A DNA stretch of 64,000 bases from a phage: the sequence record PV730300.1; one strand, 5' to 3'. The notes below the pieces were generated by a model, which was given only the letters and a program-made list of their open reading frames with translations, made no database searches and was not told the DNA's origin. This document shows, in pieces, positions 23,970 to 43,220 of this stretch (positions are counted from its first letter, which is position 1; the number at the start of each line of letters is the position of its first letter). Made by a program: the position numbers and the translations under genes.

Positions 23970-24044
23970 GGCCCTGTAGCTCAATGGGAGAGCTGTCGGC
24001 TCATAACCGATAGGTAGCTGGATCGAAACCAGCCAGGGCCACCA
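23970..24044 (+). tRNA. tRNA-Met (anticodon CAT)
   Basis: Manual cloverleaf: acceptor GGCCCTG/CAGGGCC, anticodon loop CTCATAA, CCA encoded. Confidence 0.7.
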
Positions 24045-24046
24045 AC

Positions 24047-24121
24047 GTCTTTATGGTGTAATGGATAGCACAGGAGTCTTCTAAACTCTTAGTCAAGGTT
24101 CGATTCCTTGTAAAGACACCA
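24047..24121 (+). tRNA. tRNA-Arg (anticodon TCT)
   Basis: Acceptor GTCTTTA/TAAAGAC, anticodon loop CTTCTAA, T arm CAAGG-TTCGATT-CCTTG. Confidence 0.65.
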
Positions 24122-24122
24122 G

Positions 24123-24306
24123 AACATTTTAACATGAATTAGCTCAAGTGATTTGAACCCACTACTGATCATGGTGGCAGAGAATGAGGCAAGTATGTCA
24201 GACATTATAAACAAAGGCCACGGTTATATTAGAAGACATAAATGCTCGAAGAGCACCGTTCGTTGAGAACGGGGGTTGGTGGAGTCACCATTCATGGTAA
24301 AATGTT
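24123..24306 (+). ncRNA. candidate structured small RNA 2
   Basis: 16-nt terminal helix AACATTTTAACATGAA (24123-24138) / TTCATGGTAAAATGTT (24291-24306), 15 of 16 paired, enclosing several hairpins. Confidence 0.35.
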
Positions 24307-24317
24307 TTAAAAAACTA

Positions 24318-24347
24318 TTGACAACTAACATTATTTTATGTTAGATT
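24318..24347 (+). promoter_or_regulatory. sigma70-like promoter (internal to the tRNA cluster)
   Basis: AAACTATTGACA at 24318-24323, 17 nt, TGTTAGATT-type -10. Confidence 0.45.
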
Positions 24348-24355
24348 ATAAGTAT

Positions 24356-24446
24356 GGAAGGGCAAATCGACGTGGCGACGAAAACGGTCTTGAAAACCGC
24401 CGAGCTTGAAAGAGCCTTGGGAGTTCGACTCTCCCTCCTTCCGCCA
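24356..24446 (+). tRNA. tRNA-Ser (anticodon TGA), class II
   Basis: Acceptor GGAAGGG/TCCTTCC, anticodon loop CTTGAAA, long variable arm, CCA encoded. Confidence 0.7.
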
Positions 24447-24451
24447 GATTA

Positions 24452-24537
24452 GGTAGATTGGTGAAATGGTAGCCACGACAGTTTGCTAAACTGTAGTCGG
24501 AAACGGCGTGTAGGTTCGAGTCCTACATCTACCGCCA
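24452..24537 (+). tRNA. tRNA-Ser (anticodon GCT), class II
   Basis: Acceptor GGTAGAT/ATCTACC, anticodon loop TTGCTAA, long variable arm. Confidence 0.7.
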
Positions 24538-24667
24538 AGTTCTTTTTAATATAGCTTACTTTAATAGAGTAAACTTTCGGCAGATGGCCCCCACCATCTT
24601 ACCGATAACTCATAGTTAGTGGTGTGAACACTGGCTATTTTAAAAAGAATTTAAATATTAGTATTTA

Positions 24668-24755
24668 GGTGAGTTAATTCCGTAGGGGTAGCGGGGCAGA
24701 CTGTAAATCTGTTATCATTGCGATTCGGGTGGTTCGACTCCATCACTCACCACCA
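24668..24755 (+). tRNA. tRNA-Tyr (anticodon GTA), class II
   Basis: Acceptor GGTGAGT/ACTCACC, anticodon loop CTGTAAA. Confidence 0.7.
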
Positions 24756-24761
24756 AATTAA

Positions 24762-24847
24762 GATGAGTTGGCTGAATGGTTTAAGCGGCGGACTGTTAAT
24801 CCGTGTTCGAAAGAACGATATAGGTTCAAATCCTATACTCATCGCCA
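24762..24847 (+). tRNA. class II tRNA, isotype uncertain (anticodon loop reads CTGTTAA, i.e. GTT)
   Basis: Acceptor GATGAGT/ACTCATC, T arm ATAGG-TTCAAAT-CCTAT, about 15-nt variable arm; anticodon assignment ambiguous by hand. Confidence 0.45.
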
Positions 24848-24937
24848 GAATTATGGACTTGTAGAGTTAAGGTAAACCCCCAGTCGCCAAGAGGCTTCTG
24901 AAATTGCAGGTATCGAATCCTGCCGAGTCCCAGCTTT

Positions 24938-25012
24938 GCTCCTATAGTATAATGGCTATTACAACGGTTTTGTAATCCGTGGATCTCTGTTCGATTCAGA
25001 GTGGGAGCACCA
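24938..25012 (+). tRNA. tRNA-Thr (anticodon TGT)
   Basis: Acceptor GCTCCTA/TGGGAGC, anticodon loop TTTGTAA, T arm CTCTG-TTCGATT-CAGAG. Confidence 0.6.
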
Positions 25013-25287
25013 ACACAACATTAAGAGCACTGTGATTGATCGTCGTATCCTGTGCACAAGGTCTGTTCGAAAGACAGTGTTCTTAGTATTGTGTTGATCA
25101 CACAAAAAGAGTTACCTGAAACTTGACCGGAGTAGGGTTGGATGGGGCAAAAGAAGAAGCGGCTCTCCCATCGACAGCAACGAAGAATAATATTTGACTT
25201 TGGTTTTGTATTATTTTAAGTTAGCTTACCGAACGTAGGGCTAGTCACCCAATGGGATACTCGTCACTGTCCCACTCAATAAAACTA

Positions 25288-25317
25288 TTGACAACCAATA
25301 GTAAAATGTAGTATAGT
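25288..25317 (+). promoter_or_regulatory. sigma70-like promoter (internal to the tRNA cluster)
   Basis: AAACTATTGACA at 25288-25293, about 18 nt, TATAGT. Confidence 0.45.
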
Positions 25318-25328
25318 AAAGATGTAGG

Positions 25329-25403
25329 GCGTTCTTGGTGTAGCGGTAGCATTCCGTCCTTCCAAGTCGGCGGCACGAGTTCGATCCTCGTAGAACGCTC
25401 CAA
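25329..25403 (+). tRNA. tRNA-Gly (anticodon TCC)
   Basis: Acceptor GCGTTCT/AGAACGC, anticodon loop CTTCCAA, T arm ACGAG-TTCGATC-CTCGT. Confidence 0.7.
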
Positions 25404-25500
25404 ATTATTTAATAAAGGGTTGCCAGAAAACTTTCTCTTTTACTCATGGTTTTCTCCTTCTCTCACACCTCTTCTGGTTGCCCTTCATTAAATGATTTAT

Positions 25501-25576
25501 TGGTTTGTAGTGTAGTCCGGTAGCACACGACACTTTGACTGTCGTAGGTTTGGTTCAAATCCAGACAGACCAGCCA
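25501..25576 (+). tRNA. tRNA-Gln (anticodon TTG)
   Basis: Anticodon stem CGACA/TGTCG, loop CTTTGAC, T loop TTCAAAT. Confidence 0.7.
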
Positions 25577-25581
25577 TATAA

Positions 25582-25658
25582 CGGAATTTAGCTCAGTTTG
25601 GTAGAGCATACGCTTTGGGAGCGTAGGGTCGCAGGTTCGAATCCTGCAATTCCGACCA
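25582..25658 (+). tRNA. tRNA-Pro (anticodon TGG)
   Basis: Acceptor CGGAATT/AATTCCG, D stem GCTC/GAGC, anticodon loop TTTGGGA, T arm CGCAGG-TTCGAAT-CCTGC. Confidence 0.8.
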
Positions 25659-25664
25659 ATTTAA

Positions 25665-25738
25665 TGTTTCGTAGTTCAATGGTAGAACCCACGACTGATA
25701 ATCGTGAGACACAAGTTCGATTCTTGTCGAAACAACCA
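25665..25738 (+). tRNA. tRNA-Ile (anticodon GAT)
   Basis: Acceptor TGTTTCG/CGAAACA, anticodon stem CACGA/TCGTG, loop CTGATAA. Confidence 0.75.
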
Positions 25739-25740
25739 GT

Positions 25741-25810
25741 TTCCCGTTAGACTTACAGGATAAGAGTTCCACAGCTTATTGTGATGCTGGTTCGAATCCA
25801 GCACGGGATA
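25741..25810 (+). tRNA. putative tRNA, anticodon not assignable by hand
   Basis: Canonical T arm GCTGG-TTCGAAT-CCAGC and pairing acceptor ends, but no clean anticodon arm could be folded. Confidence 0.3.
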
Positions 25811-25816
25811 CCTAAT

Positions 25817-25895
25817 AGCGGGATAGAGGAGTCTGGTCGTCCTCGCCAGTTTCATATGCTGGAGATCATCGGTTCGAATCCGATTCCCGCCTCCA
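25817..25895 (+). tRNA. tRNA-Met (anticodon CAT), possibly initiator-like or Ile2-type
   Basis: Anticodon loop TTCATAT, T arm ATCGG-TTCGAAT-CCGAT, A1-C72 mismatch at the top of the acceptor stem. Confidence 0.6.
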
Positions 25896-36874: not shown

Positions 36875-38248
36875 ATGGCAACTTTTCGTGAAAAGGTAGC
36901 AACCGTAACTTTACTGTATGGTGCTACATCAATTCGTGAAACCCAGTTCGATATTCCCCTGATCCTTACAGGTCAGAACGTAACTGGCGAAGCGATTCAA
37001 TATTACTCTTCTTCCGATGCACTTTTGGAAGCAGGTTATGGATTAAATGATCCAGCGTATATTATGGCAGTCAAACTGTTTAACGGTTTGTTCCCACCAG
37101 ATCAAGTCATGGTTGGTAAGCGTGAAGTTACAAACTTTACTCTAACTCCAATCGTAGAAGATAGTGCAACTTACACAATTACCATCAAAAATGGTACCAA
37201 GAAAAAAGAATTTAAATTCATTGCTGATGACACTGCAACTGCACAAGAGATTGTAGTTGGTCTGACTGAAATGATCAATGCAGATCTTGTTTATGGCCCA
37301 CTGTTTACAGTAGCTAACAACGGCGCTGCAATGACTTTCACTCCAGTAGAAGGTAAGTTTGGTTCTATTGACAGCACAGGTTTCACTCAAGAAACTGTCT
37401 ATGCTAATGCTATTACGGAAGATATCGCTGCTCTGCATGATATTGATAGTAGCTGGTTCTGGACCCTTTCAGATTCCCATGAAACAGAAGATGTTCTAGC
37501 TTTGGCTGCATGGGTAGAAGAGAATGATAAAGTTTACTTCTTCTCTAGCTCTGAACCTGGAATTAAAACGAAAGCAGAAGATAACGTTCTGGAACGACTG
37601 AATGACCTCGGTTATAATAACACTTGCTTTGCTTTGTGGATGACCGATGCAGATTCTGTATTCCCAGAAGCGGCAGTTGTTGGTGCAATCTGTTCTCGTC
37701 AACCTGGTTTAACTACTCTTCACGGTAAAACACTGGTAGGTGTAGAGATCGAGAAACTGGATCAGACTTCGGAAAACAATATTGTTCAACAGAACGGTAA
37801 CATCTATCGTAAAGAGCATGGAACTCTGTTCTATCGTGATGGATTGATGGTTAGCGGTTTCTTTGTTGACTATGTTGTTCATGCTTTGTGGTTTAAAGCT
37901 CGCACAGAAGAATCACTGTTTACACTGTTTAAACAACAGTCTATGCTGGGTGGTGGTGTTCGTGCTACTTCAAACGGTCTGGCTTTGATTCGACAAGCTG
38001 TTCTGGCTAACCCGATCCAAGTAGGTATCCTCAACGGTTCCATCGCTAATGAAGTTGTTACTTCTGAAGAGACTGGTTTGCGTGTCGATCTGAAACCTAT
38101 TGTTTATATTCCTTCTCGTGCCGATATGACTGATGCGCAAATCAATGCTCGTCTGGTCGATGGGATGAAGATTGAATATGTTTACGCTGGCTTCTTCCAT
38201 TACGTTAAAGTTCAGGTCAACGTCCTGACTAACCGTACTGCAAACTAA
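36875..38248 (+). CDS. tail sheath protein (putative)
   Basis: 457 aa, high-expression codon usage, immediately upstream of a tube-sized gene. Confidence 0.5.
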   Translation: MATFREKVATVTLLYGATSIRETQFDIPLILTGQNVTGEAIQYYSSSDALLEAGYGLNDPAYIMAVKLFNGLFPPDQVMVGKREVTNFTLTPIVEDSATYTITIKNGTKKKEFKFIADDTATAQEIVVGLTEMINADLVYGPLFTVANNGAAMTFTPVEGKFGSIDSTGFTQETVYANAITEDIAALHDIDSSWFWTLSDSHETEDVLALAAWVEENDKVYFFSSSEPGIKTKAEDNVLERLNDLGYNNTCFALWMTDADSVFPEAAVVGAICSRQPGLTTLHGKTLVGVEIEKLDQTSENNIVQQNGNIYRKEHGTLFYRDGLMVSGFFVDYVVHALWFKARTEESLFTLFKQQSMLGGGVRATSNGLALIRQAVLANPIQVGILNGSIANEVVTSEETGLRVDLKPIVYIPSRADMTDAQINARLVDGMKIEYVYAGFFHYVKVQVNVLTNRTAN

Positions 38249-38294: not shown

Positions 38295-38774
38295 ATGGAT
38301 AAAATGCTTACTGGCGTAATGGCCTACGACCCATCTCAAGTTATCCTTTCATTAGGTGGTTGGGAACCGTGGGGTTTTGCGGCTGATACTAAAATCGTTA
38401 TTGCTAAATCTAACGATATTATCAACCCTTATGCAGGGACTGATGGCGACGTTTCACTAGCTTTGAGTCGTAACCGTTTGGGAACACTCACAATGTCTTT
38501 GCAACGCACATCTCCAGCTAACGAAGTACTTGCAACATATGCACAAACAATGTATTCTACTCGTCAAGTAGCATTCAGCGTTTACTTGGAAGACCCACGT
38601 GGCTATTACATTAGCACGATTGGATGGATTCAAAGTCAGCCTGAAGATACTATTGGCGAAATGATTACAGAGAACCAATGGGTTATTGGTCTTAAAGATG
38701 CAAGCCTTCTGCGTAATGAAGTTGGTGTAGGTTTGAGCACCCTTAACTCAATCTCTGCTCTGACAATTCAATAA
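38295..38774 (+). CDS. tail tube protein (putative)
   Basis: 159 aa following the sheath gene. Confidence 0.45.
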   Translation: MDKMLTGVMAYDPSQVILSLGGWEPWGFAADTKIVIAKSNDIINPYAGTDGDVSLALSRNRLGTLTMSLQRTSPANEVLATYAQTMYSTRQVAFSVYLEDPRGYYISTIGWIQSQPEDTIGEMITENQWVIGLKDASLLRNEVGVGLSTLNSISALTIQ

Positions 38775-38819: not shown

Positions 38820-39302
38820 ATGTCACAAGAACAAGATAACACAATTCAAAAATATGCTCGACCAGAAGAAGTAGTTGAGATTCCGTTAGATGGAAACAGA
38901 TCTGTTACTTTCCGTATTATGAAGTGGAGTCCATCTAAAGTGTTTGACAGGATTCCAGAATTGGGTAGTGTTCTGGTTGTTCCTATGACTATGTATAGCA
39001 CAGCAACAATGTCCGCAGACGAAGACCTTGAGTCACGTATTGCTATGGCACTGATCCAACTTTTTGCGGGTTTGGAAGAAAAGAATTTAACTGTCTTTTT
39101 GCGTAAAATTTTAGATGAGGTTTATACTCAAGACGGTTATAACGTTGCAGAAAATTTTGATGAATTATTTATGGCTCACCCAGAACTAGTGTTAGATCTT
39201 ACTGCTAAAGTTCTGGAGGTAAACTACGGCCCTTTTTTCAAACGAGGTTTCGGAAAACTGTTCACACAGCTTCAGGCGATGACGAGTTTAGCAGCAAATT
39301 AA
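38820..39302 (+). CDS. tail assembly chaperone (putative) with candidate -1 frameshift extension to 39568
   Basis: Slippery heptamer T_TTT_TTC at 39233-39239 in frame 0; the -1 frame is open from there to 39568. Confidence 0.45.
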   Translation: MSQEQDNTIQKYARPEEVVEIPLDGNRSVTFRIMKWSPSKVFDRIPELGSVLVVPMTMYSTATMSADEDLESRIAMALIQLFAGLEEKNLTVFLRKILDEVYTQDGYNVAENFDELFMAHPELVLDLTAKVLEVNYGPFFKRGFGKLFTQLQAMTSLAAN

Positions 39303-39564
39303 CACCTGCGATTGAACATGCTATCGACACAGCAACGAAAACCCTTACTTTGAAGTGGTATGAGGTTATTCTTTGCAAAGTCGTTAAAGATACCTCGGAA
39401 ACACTGAAAACATTGGATAACTACGGTGTAGATTATCTTTTAAAACTATATGAGTATTTAACATACGAAGAGTATGTTGAAGCCATGTATGTTAAAGACA
39501 CTTCAATAAAGAGAAAACATCAAAACCAAACAAATAAAATGTCAGATTTGTTTAAGAAACTTGT

Positions 39565-39593
39565 TTGACTTTAAAACGTCACGGTGGTATACT
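39565..39593 (+). promoter_or_regulatory. sigma70-like promoter (TTGACT-N17-TGgTATACT) upstream of the endonuclease ORF
   Basis: TTGACT at 39565-39570, TATACT at 39588-39593. Confidence 0.5.
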
Positions 39594-39620
39594 TCTTTTA
39601 TTGAATAGAGGAGGAACATC

Positions 39621-40937
39621 ATGCGTGGCGTTTTAAATATTATAGGTCAAGACCCAAACAATCCAGACAAAATTCTGGTTACATGCTCTATCTGTTCAGA
39701 AGATAAAGAACTTTATCCTCAACCTTTCAGCATGTTCAAAAGTAACTTTGGTAGGCAAACACCTTGTGGTTGCTCAAAATGTCCAAAACTAAGTGAAGAT
39801 CAAGCCTACATTGTAGCAAAGAGAGCTACAGAAGCTTTAGGATACACTTTTTTAGGTTGGAGTAAAGAATACACAGGCTCAAGTTCTACAAAAATCCGTT
39901 GTGTTTGTCCTGAACATGGGGAATGGAACACTGGTATAATTTCAACGATTCGGAAGGGTGTGGGTTGTCCAAAGTGTGTAGATCCTAGGAAAAGAAAAGA
40001 TTTAGTAAAAGCTGAAGATTTCTTGGCAACAGGCTTCTTTGAAGATGGGACTACTTTTACCAAATCTGAAAGAAAAGATAAAAATGGTTGGAGTCCTTAT
40101 TGGTTTGTTACCTGCCCTACATGTTCAAATGATAAGTTTGTAAAAGCTGGACTTTGCTCTGGTATCTTTGAAGGCATGAAGTCTAATCTTTTGAAGGGTG
40201 CTAAACCTTGTCGTTGTTCTTCAAGGTATGTATACACTGAAGAGCAATATATTTTACGAATTAACACTGAAACACCTTATAGCTTTATTCGTTGGATTGG
40301 GAAGTTTAAAGGTAATCGCTCAAAAGTTGTAGTTTTTTGCGAAGAACATGGCGGTGAGATAGAGATGACTGTTTTTGGTTTGTTATCGGGAAACCGTTGT
40401 ATTACTTGTCACGGACACAAACCGAAACCAGAGACTGACATGAAAGAACAATTGAAAAAGGTTTGTGAGGAACGTGGATACACTTTTGTAAAGCTTATTG
40501 ATTACAAATCAAATAAGAGTTCTTTTCAATACTCTTGCAAAACCCACGGCATCCAACAAATATCAATCACAAACTTTATACACGGTGAACAAGGTTGTCC
40601 AGAATGTAGAGGTAAAAATCAGACCTATGCTTATATTCACCTGGTGGAAGATGAGGGTCTTGGTATTATTGGTCTTAAATTTGGAATAACAAAAAATCCA
40701 AGAATAAGAATAAGGCAACAGAATCGACTTGCTAAATATAAACTACGCAAGTTTAAGTTATATAGATTTGAAACTGTGGCAGCTTGTCGCACCGCAGAGA
40801 AAGAAGTGAAAGACGTTTTACCTTGCGGAGTTTTCTCCCAACAAGACATTCCAGACGGGTGGACAGAGACAACTTATATCTACAACCTGGAAAACATTAT
40901 GAAAATCTTTGAAGATAATGGAGGAATACTTTGTTAG
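39621..40937 (+). CDS. homing endonuclease-like protein: five tandem Cys-rich zinc-ribbon repeats plus C-terminal T5orf172 / GIY-YIG-like domain
   Basis: Repeated Cys-pair zinc-ribbon modules (e.g. CPEHG...CPKC, CEEHG...CITC, CKTHG...CPEC); C-terminal YIHLVEDEGLGIIGLKFGIT...R...Q pattern; own ribosome-binding site (GAGGAGG); lies directly 5' of the intron core. Confidence 0.5.
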   Translation: MRGVLNIIGQDPNNPDKILVTCSICSEDKELYPQPFSMFKSNFGRQTPCGCSKCPKLSEDQAYIVAKRATEALGYTFLGWSKEYTGSSSTKIRCVCPEHGEWNTGIISTIRKGVGCPKCVDPRKRKDLVKAEDFLATGFFEDGTTFTKSERKDKNGWSPYWFVTCPTCSNDKFVKAGLCSGIFEGMKSNLLKGAKPCRCSSRYVYTEEQYILRINTETPYSFIRWIGKFKGNRSKVVVFCEEHGGEIEMTVFGLLSGNRCITCHGHKPKPETDMKEQLKKVCEERGYTFVKLIDYKSNKSSFQYSCKTHGIQQISITNFIHGEQGCPECRGKNQTYAYIHLVEDEGLGIIGLKFGITKNPRIRIRQQNRLAKYKLRKFKLYRFETVAACRTAEKEVKDVLPCGVFSQQDIPDGWTETTYIYNLENIMKIFEDNGGILC

Positions 40938-40994
40938 AAATTAACGCCTTAACTTAGGGGCTAATGTGTAGTGATACACATTATCAACTTTGTG

Positions 40995-41185
40995 AATTGC
41001 TGGGACACCCTTAGAGCCACACTACCACTGCGAATCGAAAGATGAAGCCACGGTTTGAAAAGTGTGTGGATTGGGTAATCAGCAGCCAAGCTCCGTTTAG
41101 GAGAAGGTTCAACGACTATCCCGTAAGGGAGTAGGATCAAGTGGTCCGAAGCGCAAAGCGTCTCATGTAGATGAAGATATAGTCT
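40995..41185 (+). ncRNA. group I intron catalytic core (P, Q, R, S elements)
   Basis: P-like AATTGCTGGGAC (40995-41006), Q AATCAGCAGC (41077-41086), R GTTCAACGACTA (41107-41118), S AAGATATAGTCT (41174-41185), in canonical order, with GACTAT/ATAGTC able to form P7. Confidence 0.7.
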
Positions 41186-41264
41186 AATCTGTAGGGAAAC
41201 TTACAGCAGCGAAAGCGGGGAAGAATTAACGAATCTTCCCGAATACAATGCAAAAATTAGTAAC

Positions 41265-43220
41265 GTGGTTACGTTTAAGGTGGACAAGAACAGTCTCAAG
41301 GAAGCAAAAGATGCCGTGTTGAGTGTTCAGAAGTTTGCAAATAAAATGCAACCCACTATGAACATGACCAAGTTTAGACAACAAATGAAAGAGATTGAGC
41401 GTGAACTTAAGAAAGCTCAAACTCAAAGTCAAAAACCTATGCGAGCACCTACTCCCGCTGGAGCGGGTGCTCCTGTAGGTGGATCTGGCAGACCTAGAAC
41501 TCCTAAAACCCCGCAAGGAAGAGAAGAAGAAAAAGCTCGTAAAGCGGCTGAACGCGAAGCTAAAGCAGCAGCACGTAGGGAAGATTTAGGTAATCTTCGT
41601 TTGCAGAACTTTAACTACCGAGCAAAAGCATTTAGTAAAGCCAGTCCTGGCGCTATGCAAGAAGCTAGAGACGTTATGGGTAAAGCTGTAGAGCAATATA
41701 AGAAGGGTGAAATAACTCTTCAACGTATGAACCAAGCTCTTGCTCACCAGTTAGATGCTTTACGCAGATCTCATCGTGAAAAGAATGCTGAAATAGAAGA
41801 CGAGGTTCGCGGTCGTCGCCGTATTCGTAGAGAGCTAGAAGCAGAAGCTAAAATGCGTATACGTATGCGAAACCGTGAACTTAGAGATATAGAACGCAAC
41901 CGTAAGCGTGAATTAGCTCAGCAAAAACGTGATCGTGATCGTCGATATGGACAATTAAAAGAAGGTGCAGCAGGTCTTAATCCACGCATGATTGCATCCT
42001 CTTTGATAGGTGCTGGACTGTTTGCAGGTGGTTCTGTAGTTGGTAACACTTTGATGAATACTAACGAAAGAATTAAAATGGTTAGTCGCGGTGCTGAAAA
42101 CGTCCAAACGAATGCTAACTCTATTTTAACAATGACCGCATGGGGTGAACAAAACGGTGTAGACTCGGCAAATATCATTAAAGCAATAGATAACATTAAA
42201 GACGTTCGTGAACGTCTAGGTAATACCATGATGAACACCAAATGGAACGCAAAAGAAGGGAAATGGAAAGGTGGTGATAACGGTATTACTGATATTATGA
42301 ATGCTTTTGGTTGGAACCCCGATCAAATAAAACATTTGCAAAATGACCCGTTAGCTTTTATCCAAGCCACTGTTAATGAAGGCGAACGTCGAGGCATGAA
42401 CTCTGCTCAAATCGGGCGACTTCTTGAAAACCTTGGTGATGACCTTATGCACTACCAACGTATGTTTAGTAAAAACGGCGAAGGGTATAACGAAGTATTG
42501 AAAATGCTTCAAAGAACAGGTGCAACATTAACTCAAGAACAAATAGATGCTTCTAAAGAGTTTACTCGTTTTGCTGCAACAGTTCAGCTTGTAGGTCAAG
42601 GTATGCAGAACCATTTCCTGGAAGGTTTTGTAAAAGCTTTACCTAAAGATGATTCTTGGTTGGATAATGTTAAAGTGCTAGATCAGTTCGCCAAAGATTT
42701 AGGTGAAGAACTTGGTAAAACAACAGTTCAACTTGGTGGTTTTGCTAAAGAATTGGGAGATGGTTTCGGATCTTTTACCAATTGGCTTAAAGAAACATTC
42801 CCCGATACCTTCGGAGACAACACAGATCCTAATAAATCTATGGCACAAAAAGCATATGAGGCAACGCAAAGTGGAGACAGTAACCCTGTAGCAGATTGGT
42901 TGTACAATTTAACAGGTATTGATACACAAGATATTGGTCGTATGTGGAGAGGAGAGCAAACAAGGACACGTGCTTTTGGATTTGGTAATCCTCTTGAGGA
43001 TTTACGTGAATCAGCCTATACACCTAACGTAAGTTTGGCTCGTAATCAACCTGTTGTTGAGAATACGGTAGCAATACCAAGTGATCTTATCAAAGTTACG
43101 ATCAGCCCTTCTTCCGAGTTTGGAAATATTCTTGATGCAAGAATTCAAAACAGCGGAAATAGCATTTTCCAACGTTTGTCTCTTTCAACTCTAAGTGGAC
43201 AATCTAACACTGGTGGTTAA
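41265..43220 (+). CDS. tail tape measure protein (putative); 5' end probably supplied by splicing
   Basis: 651 aa, coiled-coil and basic-rich, followed by a strong terminator; the listed GTG start has no ribosome-binding site and the frame is open upstream to 41175. Confidence 0.55.
   Translation: MVTFKVDKNSLKEAKDAVLSVQKFANKMQPTMNMTKFRQQMKEIERELKKAQTQSQKPMRAPTPAGAGAPVGGSGRPRTPKTPQGREEEKARKAAEREAKAAARREDLGNLRLQNFNYRAKAFSKASPGAMQEARDVMGKAVEQYKKGEITLQRMNQALAHQLDALRRSHREKNAEIEDEVRGRRRIRRELEAEAKMRIRMRNRELRDIERNRKRELAQQKRDRDRRYGQLKEGAAGLNPRMIASSLIGAGLFAGGSVVGNTLMNTNERIKMVSRGAENVQTNANSILTMTAWGEQNGVDSANIIKAIDNIKDVRERLGNTMMNTKWNAKEGKWKGGDNGITDIMNAFGWNPDQIKHLQNDPLAFIQATVNEGERRGMNSAQIGRLLENLGDDLMHYQRMFSKNGEGYNEVLKMLQRTGATLTQEQIDASKEFTRFAATVQLVGQGMQNHFLEGFVKALPKDDSWLDNVKVLDQFAKDLGEELGKTTVQLGGFAKELGDGFGSFTNWLKETFPDTFGDNTDPNKSMAQKAYEATQSGDSNPVADWLYNLTGIDTQDIGRMWRGEQTRTRAFGFGNPLEDLRESAYTPNVSLARNQPVVENTVAIPSDLIKVTISPSSEFGNILDARIQNSGNSIFQRLSLSTLSGQSNTGG

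Follow-up and report, generated by a model that had tools for sequence, protein, structure and literature searches.

A T5orf172-like homing endonuclease gene adjoins an ORF-less group I intron in a Phapecoctavirus tape-measure gene

The stretch of DNA analysed here, hereafter the window, comprises 64,000 nucleotides (nt) of phage sequence record PV730300.1 and is a genome segment of a Phapecoctavirus (Stephanstirmvirinae); over positions 39000-41400 it shares 99.1% identity with Escherichia phage nepoznato (NC_052658). A free-standing homing endonuclease gene (HEG), an ordinary member of a known phage homing endonuclease family, stands at the junction of the tail-assembly-chaperone region with the tape-measure gene; its insertion is a cassette of ~1.35 kb with its own predicted sigma70-like promoter. 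Immediately downstream, a group I intron devoid of an open reading frame (ORF) interrupts the tape-measure gene near its 5′ end. We are highly confident of the identity of these parts, both the endonuclease domains and the intron, and the best-supported reading of their arrangement, to which we give somewhat better than even chances, is that HEG and intron together form a cassette of the collaborative-homing type. The parts are as follows.

39565..39593, + strand: sigma70-like promoter, TTGACT-17-TATACT with TGn extended -10, matching the consensus at 10 of 12 positions; the first bases of the insert, at the left cassette edge
39608..39614, + strand: strong Shine-Dalgarno (SD) sequence of the HEG, GAGGAGG
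39621..40937 including the stop, + strand: free-standing HEG, 438 amino acids (aa), ATG start; PHROG 681 'endonuclease', 1e-89
39621..39788, + strand: CapR module 1, aa 1-56; CxxC...CxC (C22, C25, C49, C51); 38.8 bits alone
39789..39983, + strand: CapR module 2, aa 57-121; CxxH...CxxC (C96, H99, C116, C119); 41.0 bits alone
39984..40223, + strand: CapR module 3, aa 122-201; CxxC...CxC (C165, C168, C197, C199); 55.5 bits alone
40224..40415, + strand: CapR module 4, aa 202-265; CxxH...CxxC (C240, H243, C260, C263); 30.0 bits alone
40416..40613, + strand: CapR/DUF723 module 5, aa 266-331; CxxH...CxxC (C306, H309, C326, C329); CapR 39.0 bits, DUF723 21.4 bits
40614..40934, + strand: T5orf172-like GIY-YIG nuclease domain, aa 332-438; invariant Y338, K353, G355, R363, E393, G413, E416 and T417
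40920..40925, + strand: tape-measure ribosome-binding site (RBS) GGAGGA, inside the last HEG codons; a homologous GAGGA stands 5′ of the TTG in the empty-site phage ZCKP1
40931..40949, + strand: tape-measure exon 1, 19 nt (TTG TTA GAA ATT AAC GCC T), with a 7-nt overlap with the HEG end
40950..41250, + strand: ORF-less group I intron, 301 nt, phase 1, in codon 7 (Ser, T|CA); terminal G41250
41251..43220, + strand: tape-measure exon 2, which with exon 1 encodes 662 aa

Most relatives lack about 1.65 kb at this locus. The empty site was found at ≥99% identity in 65 phage records of Phapecoctavirus, and the window flanks are 99.6-100% identical to those of empty-site phages. As for a free-standing HEG, presence or absence thus concerns a single locus among near-identical genomes, and the same holds for a second pair, the HEG-bearing locus L003 and the empty-site phage phiWec188. 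In GenBank, the HEG together with this intron occurs only in nepoznato, and the Logan public assemblies contain the same cassette at 99.5% identity (L006-L011). Logan also yielded three diverged relatives of the HEG (L003, L135 and L136), all at the chaperone/tape-measure junction where flanks are visible.

L003: HEG P0002, 68% aa identity to the window HEG; intron at the same position (86.6 bits, 90% nt identity); tail sheath 87% aa identical
L135: HEG P0003, 45% aa identity; intron present (90.5 bits); exon 1 reads GTG GCA TTA GAA ATC AAC GCC T
L136, 4001-4927 (Logan SRR23967707): HEG P0004, 308 aa, 47% aa identity, without modules 1-2; no intron; diverged tape-measure 5′ end, GTG TTA GAG ATT AAA ACC TCA ACC CTC...

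The layout expected of collaborative homing, a free-standing HEG adjoining an ORF-less intron, thus recurs at the same site in the window and nepoznato, in L003 and in L135. P0004 is a natural repeat-deletion variant with three modules, and its reduced array goes with intron absence, a correlation of n=1. The flanks of L003 are about 96% identical to those of the empty-site phages phiWec188 and PsgM04F. Outside its own clade, the HEG shares only about 25-35% identity with GenBank phage homologs. Distant homologs considered as possible sharers of the locus, in Klebsiella phage KP2025 and Pectobacterium phage DU_PP_I (about 36% identity), were rejected, as they sit among early genes.

The intron was detected as the single group I intron of the window by Rfam RF00028 (40938-41206; score 92.9 bits, gathering score 50 bits; the full model, positions 1-253 of 253), and its borders were set by comparison with the empty allele. 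In the Klebsiella phage ZCKP1, which has the empty site, the tape-measure gene starts 20 nt after a 72-aa ORF and reads GAGGAacatacTTG TTA GAA ATT AAC GCC TCC AAA ATT AGT AAC GTG. The window keeps 24 nt of this allele, ATACTTTGTTAGAAATTAACGCCT, unchanged at 40926-40949 and continues with TAACTTAGGGGC...; the 3′ end of the intron is ...GAATACAATG (last base G41250), followed by exon 2, CAAAAATTAGTAACGTGG, and the predicted ligated junction is ...AACGCCT|CAAAAATT. Removing the intron restores the reading frame, since positions 40931-40949 joined to 41251-43220 encode 662 aa that match the uninterrupted tape-measure protein of ZCKP1 from end to end at 99.7% identity. Among six alleles (window, ZCKP1, L003, L133, L135 and L136), differences across the splice junction fall mainly at third codon positions, which supports coding across it.

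On this border analysis, the HEG precedes exon 1 and is no part of the intron. The last HEG codons, GGA GGA ATA CTT TGT TAG, contain the RBS of the tape-measure gene and extend over its TTG start (40931), and the intron starts 13 nt past the HEG stop (40937). A preliminary description of the locus, made from the letters of the DNA, had called the endonuclease intron-borne; that label does not hold, since 40937 is the last base of the ORF and 40950 the first of the intron, and the RBS, start codon and exon 1 of the tape-measure gene occupy the gap or overlap the end of the ORF.

No open frame of more than 39 codons was found on the + strand of the intron. RNAalifold places a U40949-G40958 wobble pair at the 5′ splice site in the P1 helix, the register of which differs slightly in the Rfam alignment; a P10 pairing was not convincingly definable by eye. 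Over 89 predicted pairs, comparison with the L003 intron (90% identical) gives six compensatory changes, eight one-sided changes that keep a wobble or standard pair, and no broken pair, and the folding-energy z-score of the intron is -4.4. The intron is predicted to self-splice in vivo and restore the tape-measure mRNA.

Several smaller observations concern the splice junction and its annotation. The three intron alleles (window, L003, L135) read T|CA AAA across the junction, and empty alleles read TCC AAA or GCT AAA. The second base of exon 2 (window 41252) is thus A in all three intron alleles and C or T in empty ones, synonymously within a Ser codon, and could be a co-conversion marker or a splicing requirement. 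RNAalifold further pairs AAUU of exon 1 (40939-40942) with AAUU of exon 2 (41255-41258) across the intron; one two-sided change between the window and L003 (A-U to U-A) keeps the pairing, which, with two sequences only, may be chance or may reflect help in exon alignment. In the RefSeq entry of nepoznato (NC_052658; L001 5281-7221), the tape-measure coding sequence (CDS) starts at an internal GTG equivalent to window 41280, with no feature between the endonuclease CDS and that GTG; exon 1 and the intron are unannotated there, and the true product would be 662 aa after splicing.

The HEG protein contains ten Cys/His knuckles that pair into five four-ligand sites, exactly the ORF and the five zinc-ribbon modules that the preliminary description had recorded. 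Against the Pfam CapR profile (PF21817), the whole protein scores 156 bits (E=2.6e-46) in five stretches, far above chance, and all five module fragments pass the gathering score of 24.2 bits when scanned singly. The modules fall into two subtypes in the order A-B-A-B-B. Modules 1 and 3 have the form CxxC-23/28 aa-CxC, and the published CapR motif consists of two Cys pairs, CxxC...(24-26 aa)...CxC (PMC8096241); modules 2, 4 and 5 have the form CxxH-16 aa-CxxC, closer to DUF723 and DUF4379, to which they show weak similarity. The four Cys of module 3 (C165, C168, C197 and C199) are invariant in 29 homologs. Pairwise identity between modules is 27-42%; the repeat is therefore an ancient one, seen in the protein, and the DNA itself is not tandemly repeated. 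In a full-length AlphaFold2 (AF2) model, a high mean per-residue confidence (pLDDT 89.3), a low global score (pTM 0.47) and confidence dips at about aa 121-130, 261-270 and 321-330 together suggest well-defined beads joined by flexible linkers.

By homology, the five modules, which we predict to fold independently, are the probable DNA-recognition part of the enzyme, as had been proposed: Zn-dependent, sequence-specific DNA binding by the CapR domain was established, for PLE CapR only, by electrophoretic mobility shift assay and Cys-to-Ser mutants (PMC8096241). The array had been supposed to be unusual; it is not, given that 200/229 T5orf172 HEGs carry CapR/DUF723/DUF4397 zinc fingers, many of them several, as "beads on a string" (PMC10448857), and that repeat number in these HEGs shifts by recombination (PMC10448857).

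The C-terminal alpha/beta domain is the predicted DNA cutter. It contains the motif YIHLV...LKFGIT...R...Q at aa 338-366 and the signature of a Tyr in the first strand (Y338), K-x-G in the second (K353-x-G355), an Arg (R363) and Glu (E393, E416), invariant in 26-29 homologs; which Glu would bind the metal can be assigned only tentatively from the alignment. The AF2 model gives this domain a GIY-YIG alpha/beta fold with pLDDT 96.6, so that a nuclease fold, whose absence would have counted against the preliminary description, is predicted. A sequence profile of the domain matched none of the PDB chains. Among 26 aligned homologous C-termini, T5orf172 is matched by 10 (E<=0.01, best 4.8e-6) and MUG113 by 7, both families of the GIY-YIG clan. 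The T5orf172/GIY-YIG-like assignment accordingly stands for motif, fold, invariant residues and family-level matches, and falls short at the formal PF10544 cut-off (19.6 against 20 bits); since that cut-off is narrowly missed while family-level matches are present, we name the domain T5orf172-like, an uncertified member. The assignment as a homing-type endonuclease gene is upheld by PHROG 681 and by the domains. Among T5orf172 proteins, nuclease activity has been demonstrated only for Odn, as cited in PMC10448857.

The HEG appears equipped for its own expression. The same promoter geometry occurs in the same place in L003 (TTGACA-17-TATTAT) and L136 (TTGACA-17-TAAAAT) despite diverged surroundings, and consensus match suggests that the promoter of the window HEG is used. 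The stop codon of the 72-aa ORF overlaps its -35 element. Judged by the ratio of nonsynonymous to synonymous substitution (dN/dS) against the L003 ortholog, the HEG is under purifying selection, with 0.13 for the whole gene (DNA-binding part 0.12, nuclease part 0.15) and dS near saturation.

Under the collaborative-homing reading, during mixed infection the enzyme would recognise the uninterrupted chaperone/tape-measure junction of cassette-free phages and cut there or near the intron insertion site. Repair of the double-strand break by recombination would then copy HEG, intron and the short exon 1 between them as one unit. In carriers, the insertion of intron and HEG would itself split the recognition sequence and hence protect it, and self-splicing would restore an intact mRNA for the 662-aa tape-measure protein. 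These steps draw on what is known of the families: DNA binding by CapR (PMC8096241), the T5orf172 nuclease (Odn, cited in PMC10448857) and collaborative homing itself (PMC10448857, PMC6083498).

Several observations weigh against this reading. At the level of the enzyme, the T5orf172 profile (PF10544, gathering score 20 bits) scores 17.0, 19.4 and 19.6 bits (E about 1e-3, the best from aa 330-438), below cut-off, and Foldseek against the PDB places SLX1 on top at an insignificant level (best E 0.37). At the level of the locus, HEG and intron are linked in three lineages only (window/nepoznato, L003 and L135), and in L136 the HEG occupies the locus alone, with no intron. Between the window and L003, nt identity is 71% for the HEG and 90% for the intron, and with such unequal divergence the two parts may have separate histories. 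Related introns elsewhere carry their own endonuclease ORF, so that this intron may simply have lost an internal HEG: the closest relatives of its core (about 78% identity over about 75% of length) lie in RNA polymerase subunit genes of the Pseudomonas phages phPLST (L139 2001-2940) and HPP-Temi (L140 2001-2249), one with an annotated endonuclease ORF directly after the matched core and one without. In favour of the reading, differences between L003 and phiWec188 cluster around the intron site, at 6/24 positions against 41/495 elsewhere (Fisher p=0.015); a weakness is that the stretch tested was chosen post hoc. Four of these six changes agree with the window allele, and the exon changes of L003 fit either a short co-conversion tract or selection for P1 pairing.

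The main rival explanation, possible but in our judgement doubtful, takes HEG and intron as two independent selfish elements side by side. The HEG would target the chaperone/tape-measure junction or a nearby site regardless of the intron, and the intron would be the leftover of an older invasion that lost its own endonuclease through HEG turnover and now hitch-hikes on gene conversion. The intron-less HEG of L136, the unequal divergence of the two parts and the Pseudomonas phage relatives of the intron, one with an endonuclease ORF, all speak for it, and it has been proposed as an alternative for such layouts (PMC10448857). However, no intron-only allele was found among GenBank phages or in IMG/VR, where an exact 19-mer of the intron/exon-2 junction had no match (a 17-mer of that junction proved too short and AT-rich for a metagenome collection, from which no returned locus matched the region by blastn). 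Moreover, the pair occurs together in three lineages between which exon 1 is conserved, and the exon is near-identical to the empty allele in intron-bearing genomes but diverged in the intron-less HEG carrier L136, as expected if the target lies there.

A domesticated derivative is quite improbable. On that view, the protein would be a CapR-like or I-TevI-like regulator of the tape-measure and late genes, or an Odn-like nuclease directed against a satellite or competing phage. In its favour, such HEGs gave rise to the repressor CapR (PMC8096241), related E. coli phages have Odn-like T5orf172 nucleases (PMC10448857), and the HEG overlaps the translation-initiation region of the tape-measure gene. 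But the nuclease domain is kept, with catalytic-type residues invariant and under purifying selection; Pfam detected no RepA_N or other captured targeting domain; and a patchy distribution at one locus, among genomes otherwise nearly identical, marks a selfish element rather than a beneficial regulator.

That the HEG is encoded inside the group I intron in the manner of I-TevI is scarcely credible. ORF and ribozyme are contiguous, the Rfam match beginning at 40938, the base after the stop, but the 24 nt shared with the empty allele (40926-40949) stand between the ORF body and the intron and hold the tape-measure start and exon 1, after the RBS at 40920-40925; P1 and its U-G splice-site pair lie 3′ of the HEG stop; the 301-nt intron has no + strand ORF of more than 39 codons; and no exon precedes the HEG, the 72-aa ORF before it being intact. 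A decaying, inactive remnant is just as hard to sustain, because although HEGs commonly degenerate once fixed and T5orf172 scores below threshold here, the ORF keeps its full length, with five intact zinc sites and invariant core residues, dN/dS is 0.13, and promoter and SD are conserved.

Within the collaborative-homing reading, a more specific version can be drawn, which we consider unlikely. The five-module array would read a long bipartite site of ~40-60 bp covering both the point of HEG insertion and that of the intron, 33 nt downstream, the intron being the immunity determinant of the cassette. On the same slender odds, modules 1-2, which all three intron-linked HEGs possess and the L136 HEG lacks, would be those that read across the intron site. 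If true, the allelic series (five versus three modules, split versus diverged target) would offer a direct handle on a modular CapR recognition code.

Given their shared architecture, T5orf172 HEGs with CapR/DUF723 arrays, such as ICP1 gp174 and gp165 and the six-repeat HEG of Vibrio phage Helene (PMC10448857, PMC8096241), are the closest known counterparts of the protein. They too combine an N-terminal zinc array with a C-terminal T5orf172/GIY-YIG-like nuclease, are free-standing beside an essential structural gene, and vary in repeat number (5 here, 3 in P0004); the present protein differs in that 3/5 modules are CxxH...CxxC rather than the CxxC...CxC of CapR, and in a T5orf172 score just below cut-off. 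PLE CapR, the Vibrio cholerae satellite repressor, shares PF21817 but has lost the nuclease domain that is kept here. I-TevI of the T4 td intron is intron-encoded, with an N-terminal nuclease and a single zinc finger plus helix-turn-helix, whereas the present enzyme is extra-intronic, with a C-terminal nuclease and five zinc modules.

For the locus as a whole, the parallels are the collaborative layouts of ICP1 terL (PMC10448857), of F-CphI with the psbA intron of cyanophage S-PM2 (PMC6083498) and of the DNA polymerase introns of T3/T7-like phages, in which a free-standing HEG likewise adjoins an ORF-less group I intron of an essential gene, and close relatives have either both HEG and intron or neither. 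In ICP1, a T5orf172 HEG lies beside the terL intron, outside it, and has been read as a case of collaborative homing (PMC10448857). Here, by contrast, the host gene is a coliphage tape-measure gene, and the HEG, placed upstream, runs into the start codon of an exon 1 of 19 nt. For F-CphI, cutting where the intron inserts has been demonstrated (PMC6083498); for the present HEG, cutting there or nearby is a prediction. Tape-measure genes are often interrupted (PMC10448857), and that of ICP1 also houses group I introns and HEGs, but as three introns with intronic HNH-3 HEGs (PMC10448857), compared with one ORF-less intron at codon 7 and an external T5orf172-type HEG here.

The neighbouring genes of the cassette are listed below.

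36875-38248: tail sheath
38295-38774: tube
38820-39302: tail assembly chaperone
39350-39568: 72-aa ORF with a TTG start, between the tail assembly chaperone and the HEG
from 41265: tape-measure gene as listed by the ORF finder

The 72-aa ORF is conserved in relatives (82 aa in L003 and phiWec188) without an assigned function. A search for HEG paralogs within the window found none, and its 64 kb hold no second intron; in nepoznato (NC_052658), the intron query and the HEG protein query alike have a second matching place. Elsewhere in the window, a cluster of 11 tRNA genes occupies 23970-25892 on the + strand and adjoins a point near 23 kb at which GC skew changes sign, a hint that transcription switches direction there.

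The architecture of the protein has already been described and alone adds little. A text search of one library of papers found none linking Phapecoctavirus with group I introns, and nepoznato was not found in five text-form supplementary files of PMC10448857. New are the group I intron itself, previously unannotated, within an E. coli phage tape-measure gene, and a clean case in which a T5orf172-type HEG accompanies an ORF-less intron; the coliphage genus concerned is well sampled and easy to grow, and dozens of its sequenced isolates have the empty site. With so many empty-site isolates in hand, this genus makes collaborative homing, intron-mediated immunity and the logic of CapR recognition directly testable.

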